Assembly: GCA_964620915.1 (NCBI GenBank)
Contig: CAZUKP010000045.1
Coordinates: 237-24,236, forward strand
Source: an uncultured Hyphomicrobium sp.
GTDB taxonomy: Bacteria > Pseudomonadota > Alphaproteobacteria > Rhizobiales > Hyphomicrobiaceae
DNA length: 24,000 nt
Direction: 5' to 3'
The position numbers were made by a program, and so were the translations under genes. Shown one piece after another: positions 5,320-7,044 of the stretch (its first letter is position 1; every line of letters begins with the position of its first letter). The notes below the pieces were generated by a model, which was not told where the DNA came from, ran no database searches, and was given only the letters and a program-made list of their open reading frames with translations.

Positions 5320-6477
5320 TTAAAAGAATCCCAGCGCCTTTGGACTATAACTGACCAAAACGTTCTTAGTCTGCTGGTAGTGGTCGAGCATCATCTTGTG
5401 TGTCTCGCGCCCAACACCTGACTGCTTGTATCCTCCGAAGGCGGCATGGGCCGGGTAGAGGTGGTAGCAATTAGTCCACACGCGCCCCGCCTTAATGCCG
5501 CGACCCATGCGGTAGGCCGTGTTGATATTGCGAGTCCACACGCCTGCTCCCAGGCCGTAAAGCGTGTCGTTGGCCATCGATAGCGCTTCGTCCTCGGTCT
5601 TAAACGTCGCCACGGAAACGACCGGGCCGAAGATCTCTTCCTGGAAGATGCGCATGCGGTTATGACCTTTGAAAACGGTGGGCTCAACGTAATATCCCTT
5701 TTCAAAGCCATCTCCGATATCGGCTTTCTTGCCGCCGGTCAGCACTTCGGCACCTTCGTCCCGCCCAATGTCGATATAGGACATGATCTTCTCAAGCTGG
5801 TCGGACGAGGCTTGCGCGCCAATCATCGTATGGGGATCGAGCGGATTGCCTTGCGTGATCTTTCCGACCCGTTCAAGAGCGCGCTCCATGAAGGCATCGT
5901 AGATCGACTCCTGGATTAGTGCGCGCGACGGGCAGGTGCACACCTCGCCCTGATTCAGGGCGAACATGGTGAAGCCCTCAAGCGCCTTGTCAAAGAAGTC
6001 GTCGTCCTTCTCCATGACGTCGGCAAAGAATATGTTGGGCGACTTTCCACCGAGCTCGAGCGTCACCGGTATGATATTCTCTGCCGCGTATTGCATGATG
6101 AGTCGGCCAGTTGTCGTCTCGCCGGTGAACGCAACCTTGGCAATACGCCGATTGGAGGCGAGCGGCTTGCCTGCCTCGACACCGAAGCCGTTGACGATAT
6201 TGAGAACGCCCGGAGGCAACAGGTCGCCGATCAGATCGGCCAGAACCACGATACCCATCGGCGTCTGCTCAGCCGGCTTCAGGATGACGCAATTGCCGGC
6301 CGCGAGGGCCGGTGCGAGTTTCCAGGCCGCCATGAGAAGAGGAAAATTCCAGGGTATGATCTGGCCGACGACGCCGAGCGGCTCATGGTAGTGGTAGGCG
6401 ATCGTGTCATCGTCGAGTTCGGAGAGCGAGCCCTCCTGCGAACGGATGCAGCTGGCAAAATAGCGATGAGGGTCGAG
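5320..6477 (-). pseudogene. NAD(P)-dependent aldehyde dehydrogenase (AldB/AcoD/ExaC type), 5'-truncated; roughly the first 120-130 codons are missing
   Basis: The frame stays open from the stop at 5320 up to an in-frame TAA (complement of 6478-6480). The upstream part reads [63 protein letters not shown], which in full-length enzymes of about 506 aa starts near residue 125. No start codon occurs before the Met at 6333. The catalytic region ELGGKSP and GEVCTCPSR is present. Confidence 0.8.
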
Positions 6478-7044
6478 TTAGCAGTGATCATCACTAGCTA
6501 TGTCGCGCTTTGGTCATACCTCTGGTTCACCCGGGACAGACATCTCGATAGGCTGTCGCCTCGGGAGGAGCTCAAACGCTACTTCAATCTACTGTTCTTC
6601 ATCCTGGTCTATGTCTTCTCGGTCTACTTCGCGGCGAGCTTCTTCGCCGAGCAGGATGCGGCGTGGCATCAGACTGTGGTCCGCGATACGAGCTTCACTC
6701 CAAGCCACATCGTGCTCTTCTATGGAACGATGCCGCTCTACGTGTTGTTCGGCGTTGGCTCCTTCTTGTACGGGATGACGAGAATTCCAGCGTTTGCCAA
6801 GAATATCTCTATTCCTTTCCTGGTCGCCGTCGTTGGCCCTTTCTTGATCCTGCCGAACCTCGGGTACAACGAATGGGCCCATGCGTTCTGGCAGATCGAG
6901 GAGGTCTTCTCGGCGCCTGTACACTGGGGCTTTGTCATAATGGGCTGGAGCGTGCTCGGTCTGGGCGGTCTTTTGGTGCAGATCGTTCAGGGCACACTCA
7001 GTGCGATGAGGCGGGTGGACGGCGAGTCGCACGCACGAGCTTAG
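6466..7044 (+). CDS. amoC: Copper membrane monooxygenase subunit C (AmoC/PmoC family), N-terminally truncated; about 70-80 residues and the first two TM helices are missing
   Basis: Similarity to AmoC/PmoC begins at about [38 protein letters not shown], which corresponds to about residue 75-95 of full-length proteins. It continues through [28 protein letters not shown] and [22 protein letters not shown]. The Asp/His/His metal ligands are conserved (D at 6655-6657, H at 6667-6669, H at 6706-6708). The ORF-track portion 6091-6465 is antisense to the aldehyde dehydrogenase, not AmoC. The first in-frame ATG inside the homologous part is 6466. Confidence 0.75.

Follow-up and report, generated by a model that had tools for sequence, protein, structure and literature searches.

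How do two divergently transcribed genes come to lose their 5' ends at one and the same point? The question is raised by a 24,000-nt stretch of DNA from an uncultured Hyphomicrobium sp. (contig CAZUKP010000045.1, positions 237 to 24,236, of assembly GCA_964620915.1), which we call the window. In it the 3' part of a minus-strand gene for an aldehyde dehydrogenase (ALDH) directly abuts that of a plus-strand gene of the amoC/pmoC family. The names amoC, amoA and amoB are used here at the level of Pfam families only, and the operon is that of a copper membrane monooxygenase (CuMMO) with the gene order C-A-B. An initial annotation of the window proposed either that a real deletion or rearrangement had decapitated both genes, or that the junction was an artefact of assembly or scaffold concatenation. 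Comparison with related loci indicates that the junction, located between positions 6465 and 6466, was very probably left by a single recent deletion that took about 8 kb out of the chromosome in this alphaproteobacterial lineage.

Results

Profile matches, structural alignments and full-length homologues bear out the initial view that a 5'-less ALDH gene and a 5'-less amoC gene meet with no intergenic DNA between them, a double truncation well beyond what chance would give. The ALDH remnant (5320..6465, minus strand) is of the ExaC/AcoD type and corresponds to residues 134-514 of its closest 514-aa homologues. A complete PF00171 enzyme has a full domain of about 460 residues; the remnant matches the Pfam Aldedh profile only at positions 98-461 of 461 (E 1e-128), and aligns to residues 124-507 of the ExaC structure 9koi (507 aa) and to residues 146-529 of 9fm9 (529 aa). 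Its full-length relatives P0005-P0016 are 89-91% identical to it, and among the matches listed the ALDH homologues are mostly 506-514 aa long. Measured against the closest 514-aa homologue, 133 N-terminal codons are missing, a truncation that had been recognized at the outset with an estimate of about 125. The last true ALDH codon, at plus-strand positions 6463-6465, specifies the Arg of an RYFA motif (residue 134 of 514), which lies mid-domain and is not a start codon. The minus-strand frame is open from 6477 to a stop at 5320, and the apparent residues LDPH (6466-6477) are a backward reading of amoC DNA rather than part of the enzyme. The initial annotation had followed ALDH similarity up to about 6477 and then to an in-frame TAA; this TAA (6478-6480), the first one upstream in the frame, does exist, but it sits in amoC-derived DNA outside the ALDH gene. 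The first ATG of the remnant is at 6333, 44 codons inside and with no start codon before it, and the public annotation of the remnant is a 337-aa protein that begins there (P0004). The motifs of the catalytic Glu and Cys (ELGGKSP and ..EVCTCPSR..) are kept in the translation of 6477..5320. Without 133 N-terminal residues of the NAD-binding domain, the remnant is presumably a dead pseudogene.

The amoC remnant (6466..7044, plus strand, 192 codons) was delimited by the Pfam AmoC profile, tblastn and alignment to relatives. A complete PF04896 subunit has about 250-290 residues and covers the whole profile, and among the matches listed AmoC homologues are mostly 254-286 aa long; the remnant covers profile positions 63-237 of 245 (E 2e-76). 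It aligns from residue 72 of the 9leg AmoC (271 aa), and without gaps to the 1yew PmoC (289 aa), query residues 5-173 falling on 97-265 of 1yew_C at an offset of 92. Full-length AmoC relatives used as tblastn queries matched the window only at 6466-7041. The homology thus begins exactly at the ATG at 6466, a conserved internal Met (Met79 of a 271-aa and Met69 of a 261-aa homologue), and not in the region of about 6472-6485 from which similarity had been reported, although the N-terminal truncation itself stands. The first residues, MRVELAVI, are identical in the closest relative, P0124. The 78 missing codons cover the tail at the N-terminus, the first transmembrane segment and the loop after it. 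Relatives of 258-286 aa carry a first hydrophobic segment, which by hydropathy spans residues 19-50 in P0124 and is absent from the remnant, and the Met at 6466 stands at the head of the second.

That both proteins are complete, being naturally short members of their families, was an outcome the initial annotation had allowed for. Both frames are open and without frameshifts, and an ATG coincides exactly with the start of amoC homology, as this would predict. Against it stand the internal starting points of both profile matches, the full length of the closest relatives (88-91% identity) wherever their contigs allow it to be seen, the end of ALDH homology in mid-domain at a codon that cannot start a protein, and flanking synteny, which places the missing DNA between the two genes. 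We regard the probability of two complete short proteins as negligible.

What the missing DNA would have been can be seen in related genomes. The most informative is a metagenome-assembled genome (MAG), MFD02416.bin.1.3, whose 1,377,662-bp contig_32787 (locus L163) carries both the ALDH P0016 (514 aa, 89% identical to the remnant) and the closest amoA locus (L004). Along L163, amoB, amoA, amoC and an OmpW gene are read leftward; a 114-aa open reading frame (ORF) and a Fer4_19 gene rightward; FIST and zinc alcohol dehydrogenase (Zn-ADH) genes leftward; and a 637-aa acyl-CoA synthetase (ACS), ALDH, DUF779, SerA, SerC-like and HAD genes rightward. The amoCAB and ACS-ALDH-DUF779-serA gene sets are therefore divergent neighbours whose start codons lie 7.5 kb apart. 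Across the interval the same arrangement is repeated in L003 (MFD04944.bin.1.97), and L164, L083 and L168 give partial views, each in agreement with L163. Zn-ADH in L163 (6630-7617), a locus from a long-read MAG, is split into two calls of 204 and 141 aa; L164 and L003 have it undivided, at 392-411 aa. The split reflects either an assembly frameshift error or a pseudogene in MFD02416.bin.1.3.

By blastn, L163 19-2296 corresponds to window 8736-6465 and L163 10400-12006 to window 6465-4870, leaving L163 2297-10399 (8,103 bp) without a counterpart in the window; in L003 the equivalent segment is 1787-9341 (7,555 bp). To the right, the window is collinear with L003 and L083 up to about 17,500, and to the left (ALDH, DUF779, serA) with L163 and L164. 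Both flanks thus keep the order and orientation of the relatives, and the intervening genes are absent from the window. Because both flanks are collinear with the relatives' layout, a single deletion would suffice: with orientation unchanged it would convert that layout into the one seen here and explain everything observed at the junction. An ancestor would have carried the copper monooxygenase and ALDH operons transcribed divergently, as in the relatives, and one event would have removed ALDH codons 1-133, amoC codons 1-78, the six genes between them (acyl-CoA synthetase, Zn-ADH, FIST, Fer4_19, the small ORF and OmpW) and a region of about 640 nt upstream of amoC, presumably with its promoter. 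The proposal of a real deletion that decapitated both genes and took their promoters and intergenic region is in this way upheld by the layout of the relatives and the collinear flanks, and by an independent re-assembly described below.

An inversion or translocation, with the lost 5' ends and the six genes between them surviving elsewhere in the genome, would also be expected to leave 3' gene parts head to head, namely at one end of an inversion whose breakpoints lay in two co-oriented genes. The view here is limited to 24 kb of genome, and the left flank does contain another inversion, of the serB-like HAD gene. Yet the two genes are already divergent neighbours in L163, which spans the whole interval, and in L003, so that an inversion would need a different ancestral layout to begin with. 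The missing amoC 5' fragment, for which the initial annotation suggested a search of the genome, was sought within the window only: tblastn with the AmoC N-terminus, OmpW, FIST and the small upstream protein gave no match elsewhere in it. In a non-exhaustive check no FIST orthologue from the source data set was identified, the two closest matches outside the relatives (P0249, 79%; P0250, 66%) coming from other samples, and none of the FIST matches listed lies on the 80,624-bp contig that contains the window proteins. An origin by inversion or translocation is extremely unlikely, and the single deletion remains our preferred explanation.

The site of the deletion was resolved from blastn ends and from a base-by-base comparison with the ALDH genes of L163, L164 and L003 and the amoC genes of L003, L004, L083, L165 and L166, the AmoC proteins of the last two being 88-89% identical to that of the window. 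The window reads AAATAGCG up to position 6465 and ATGAGGGTCGAGTTAGC from 6466. The ALDH relatives read AAATAGCG followed by GATCTGGTCGACGG, that is, GCG and then GATCTGGTCGAC across the breakpoint, and the amoC relatives L165 and L166 read ..CT(C/G) followed by ATGCGGGTCGA(A/G)CTG. Homology therefore switches from ALDH to amoC within 1 nt, and the blastn alignments to L163, L003, L164 and L083 all end or start at 6465. The break is indeed sharp, as had been claimed with an uncertainty of about 15 bp, but it lies some 12 nt to the left of where it was first placed. Microhomology at the join amounts to 1 nt, G6465 being derivable from either parent, and the junction contains neither a repeat nor a run of N. 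Five nucleotides to the right of the breakpoint the hexamer GGTCGA (6471..6476) occurs at the same offset in both parental sequences; together with G6465 it gives 7 in-register matches out of 12 (p about 0.014 by our own binomial estimate, not the output of a tool). This is a weak hint that an illegitimate join was helped by a short, imperfect base pairing. Mechanistically, the deletion would have arisen by illegitimate, non-homologous joining with 1 nt of microhomology and this nearby hexamer common to both parents.

Two other features of the junction were considered. A mobile-element-mediated event was rejected, no insertion sequence or transposase being present at the junction or in the corresponding interval of the relatives. 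The 13-nt palindrome AGTGATCATCACT (6483..6495), which had been singled out as sitting right at the junction, does exist, but it is a chance feature and does not mark the break: it lies 17 nt inside amoC coding sequence, across codons for AVIITS, where the relatives read GTGATCGTG, and palindromes of this 6+1+6 form number 11 in the window against 7.9 +/- 3.2 in shuffled sequence. The sole curiosity of the breakpoint is that it respects the codon boundaries of both genes and coincides with an in-frame ATG that is conserved in amoC.

The other possibility raised at the start was an artefact: the organism would carry an intact locus, and the junction would derive from chimeric reads, from chimeras formed during amplification, or from a false path through the assembly graph, as might happen around a gene like amoC that is often multicopy in other lineages. 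By exact look-up the window proteins occur only on the 80,624-bp contig, present in both NCBI and JGI/IMG, and on Logan contigs of sequencing run SRR9700687, an accession that gave no hits in the literature. One of these, SRR9700687_32304, from a k=31 re-assembly, equals window 5923-15340 at 100% identity and passes the junction unbranched; 543 bp of its length are ALDH sequence, and the other 8.9 kb belong to the amo side. The Logan assembly is broken within the ALDH remnant, L002 ending at 5398 and L001 starting at 5923, likely because this strongly conserved gene has 31-mers in common with ALDH genes from other organisms of the sample. That break points to graph complexity nearby, and an artefact would also fit the support of the junction by a single read set and the pristine state of both remnants, which contain no stops and have low ratios of nonsynonymous to synonymous substitution (dN/dS, 0.05-0.14). 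Several observations speak against it. Assembly with two different programs gave the identical sequence through the junction; a de Bruijn graph can be mis-joined only where a k-mer of about 30 nt is common to both sides, and here the overlap is 1 nt with no repeat; and random chimeric reads are rare, irreproducible and out-competed by the true path, in contrast to an unbranched contig. Nor is there a reason why an artefact should bring together two loci that adjoin in nature, in just the orientation that a simple deletion would give, and neither of the two FIST candidates mentioned above comes from the source data set. We consider an artefact unlikely.

Substitution patterns bear on both the origin and the age of the junction. 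The synonymous divergence (dS) from relatives is about 1.0-1.2 for ALDH, 1.1-1.3 for amoC and 1.3-1.7 for the intact amoA, and the GC content is 0.55-0.60 on both sides of the junction. These similar values of dS and GC indicate that the two sides come from one lineage, and a chimera between organisms was rejected on synteny and the similar dS. Nothing at the junction resembles concatenation either, there being no N and no repeat between flanks that are neighbours in the relatives. The 381 ALDH and 192 amoC codons contain no stops or frameshifts, and dN/dS against the relatives is 0.05-0.07 for ALDH, 0.12-0.14 for amoC and 0.08-0.11 for amoA. Because the remnants are free of such lesions and dN/dS is low, the deletion appears to be recent relative to the divergence from these relatives.

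Certain points weigh against a recent deletion and temper our confidence in it. All evidence on the junction comes from one sample and read set and is at the level of assemblies. The lack of decay in the remnants fits a very recent deletion and would equally fit an artefact. Scans of genomes and metagenome contigs with AmoA found no second genome of the same species, the best match being 79% identical, and the ancestral layout of this exact lineage is drawn from relatives, the nearest comparators that span the full interval being about 79% identical in AmoA. Finally, the left flank holds another local rearrangement, an inversion of serB.

In L163 (13737-15717) and L164 the genes serA, serC and a serB-like HAD gene lie in this order on one strand, and window 1518-2842 is rearranged relative to them. 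The HAD gene is inverted (1518-2177, plus strand) and is followed by an extra gene for a secreted-looking protein of 176-209 aa (2213-2842, minus strand) that is not part of the L163 and L164 order. Decay of the whole region was considered and rejected: an ORF for serC only seemed to be lacking, because of the window edge, and an intact serC homologue (21-1175, minus strand) runs off the left end of the window. Between these genes and the ALDH remnant, the intact serA (2963..4555, minus strand), a D-3-phosphoglycerate dehydrogenase gene by Pfam with a tblastn identity of 75% to L163 SerA over residues 1-529, anchors the synteny of the left flank. The DUF779 gene (4858..5247, minus strand; Pfam DUF779) is the usual downstream partner of ALDH, the order ALDH-DUF779-SerA being found in L163 and L164, and in the window it is left without the upstream ACS-ALDH transcription unit.

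To the right of the amoC remnant the operon is intact. The amoA/pmoA-family gene (7124..7948, plus strand; Pfam AMO) encodes 274 aa that are 79% identical over their full length to the proteins of L003, L004 and L083, and the amoB/pmoB-family gene (7994..9289, plus strand), 431 aa in the Logan call, matches Pfam Monooxygenase_B at 1-380 of 380 and is collinear with L003. Downstream of amoB (9347-13372) are genes for proteins of 206 and 322 aa without a Pfam match, the latter with a hydrolase-like GHSDGG motif, for CopC, and for a 674-aa fusion of CopD, cytochrome c and AhpC/TSA; this gene set is conserved in L003 (12235-16347). In a second, divergent operon of a relative, too, amoB is followed by a gene for a homologue of the 206-aa protein (L021 11947-12696); from its position the 206-aa protein may be an undescribed accessory protein of these monooxygenases. 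L021 and L003 lie on the same contig, CAWDMD010000007.1, so that the closest relative has a pair of divergent CuMMO operons. About 24 kb separate the two amoA matches, and 3.8 kb the sequence ranges examined; the AmoA proteins of the L003 and L021 operons are 79% and 59% identical to that of the window. After the Cop genes come a gene of the GFA family (13951-14358), a family of glutathione-dependent formaldehyde-activating enzymes, and an alpha/beta hydrolase gene, both collinear with L003 and L083.

Discussion

The deletion of its upstream region probably stripped the amoC remnant, together with amoA and amoB, of the native promoter. A promoter scan gave no evidence for a replacement upstream of the remnant: the sole sigma-70-like match, ATGAGA-17-TATGAT (6332..6360, plus strand), lies on the antisense strand of the ALDH remnant and does not exceed chance expectation (1 match against 0.6 +/- 0.8 expected; 5300-7200). 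The amoC frame is open upstream as far as a stop at 5917-5919, that is, for 546 nt (5920-6465, plus strand) through the antisense of the ALDH remnant, and gene callers therefore report chimeric ORFs. The publicly annotated version (P0244, 219 aa, 6385..7044, plus strand), which has exact matches in the NCBI and JGI/IMG records of the 80,624-bp contig, fuses 27 antisense-ALDH residues in frame to the AmoC remnant; other versions are a 373-aa partial gene in Logan and a 317-aa ORF that starts at TTG 6091 in a mechanical ORF list. Taken together, the monooxygenase and the neighbouring alcohol, aldehyde and acyl-CoA steps are probably inactive unless they are complemented elsewhere in the genome.

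It is conceivable that the deletion is real and yet not a knock-out, if an AmoC of 192 aa (or the annotated 219 aa), started at the conserved Met and transcribed from a fortuitous promoter in the antisense of ALDH, can still form a complex with AmoA and AmoB. In amoC the join coincides precisely with a conserved ATG in frame; a rough prior for this is about 1% (a one-in-three chance of the codon phase, multiplied by a Met codon frequency of about 3%). The remnant also keeps all six metal-ligand positions. In the alignment to 1yew_C, residues D64, H68, H81, N135, H139 and H153 fall on the PmoC ligands Asp156, His160, His173, Asn227, His231 and His245, and the motifs EQDAAWH...PSH and YNEWAHAF...PVH are visible in the translation. 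The basic sequence TRDRHLDR after the first retained helix would suit insertion with the N-terminus outside under the positive-inside rule, neither the amoC remnant nor amoA and amoB show decay, and one promoter-like site lies at 6332-6360. However, that site is no more frequent than chance predicts, and no Shine-Dalgarno-like sequence precedes the ATG at 6466 (the upstream sequence is GCTGGCAAAATAGCG). The absence of decay is equally explained by recency, and the N-terminal segment is kept in all of the approximately 120 listed homologues that are not cut by a contig end, which implies that it is needed. A working shortened subunit is very unlikely on balance; if there were one, the C subunit could do without its N-terminal tail and first helix.

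As to what was lost, the operon in the relatives adjoins genes for Zn-ADH, an ExaC-type ALDH with DUF779, and a 637-aa PrpE/ACS-like acyl-CoA synthetase (L163 1-11545; L003 171-9924; in part L164 and L168). Because these genes stand next to it, the gene neighborhood suggests that this "amoCAB" clade encodes the monooxygenase of a pathway from alkanes or alcohols to acyl-CoA rather than an ammonia monooxygenase. Among the matches listed, the closest cultured relatives by the C subunit are Azoarcus sp. DD4, with 74% identity to the window, and Bradyrhizobium niftali, with 72%; both fall among the xmoCAB operons. Operons named xmoCAB, of unknown function, have been described in Proteobacteria that are neither nitrifying nor methanotrophic, for example Bradyrhizobium sp. 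ERR11 and Solimonas aquatica (Khadka et al. 2018, PMC6215863). The present operon resembles them in its C-A-B order, in the 72-74% AmoC identity to cultured relatives, and in that the closest loci are alphaproteobacterial MAGs; it stands apart from those examples in that the loci of its relatives adjoin Zn-ADH, ALDH and acyl-CoA synthetase genes.

A CuMMO cluster with an incomplete structural gene has a precedent in the truncated pmoCA cluster of 'Ca. Methylacidiphilum kamchatkense' Kam1 (PMC6688271), and like that cluster the one studied here is judged likely to be non-functional. The two cases differ in several respects. The window has lost only the 78 5' codons of C, with A and B intact, and the partner at the break is a divergent ALDH gene. 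Relatives allow its ancestral state and its precise breakpoint to be worked out. Kam1 has three complete operons besides the truncated cluster.

Spontaneous deletions by illegitimate recombination, with short microhomology or none, are a familiar kind of mutation in bacteria. The junction is like them in its blunt join with 1 nt of microhomology, in the absence of a mobile element or long repeat, and in the loss of a block of several kilobases. The event is thus an ordinary loss of genes and of a pathway, a new instance of a familiar kind of mutation, and the deletion by itself opens no new biological question. It has practical consequences for annotation. The database records of a 219-aa "AmoC" and a 337-aa "aldehyde dehydrogenase" are fragments, and should be flagged as pseudogenes and not used as functional markers; a MAG scored as amoCAB- or pmoCAB-positive from this contig probably cannot use the operon. 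For the biology of the group, the locus would represent the loss of a pathway caught in the act, in a poorly known alphaproteobacterial clade of copper monooxygenases.

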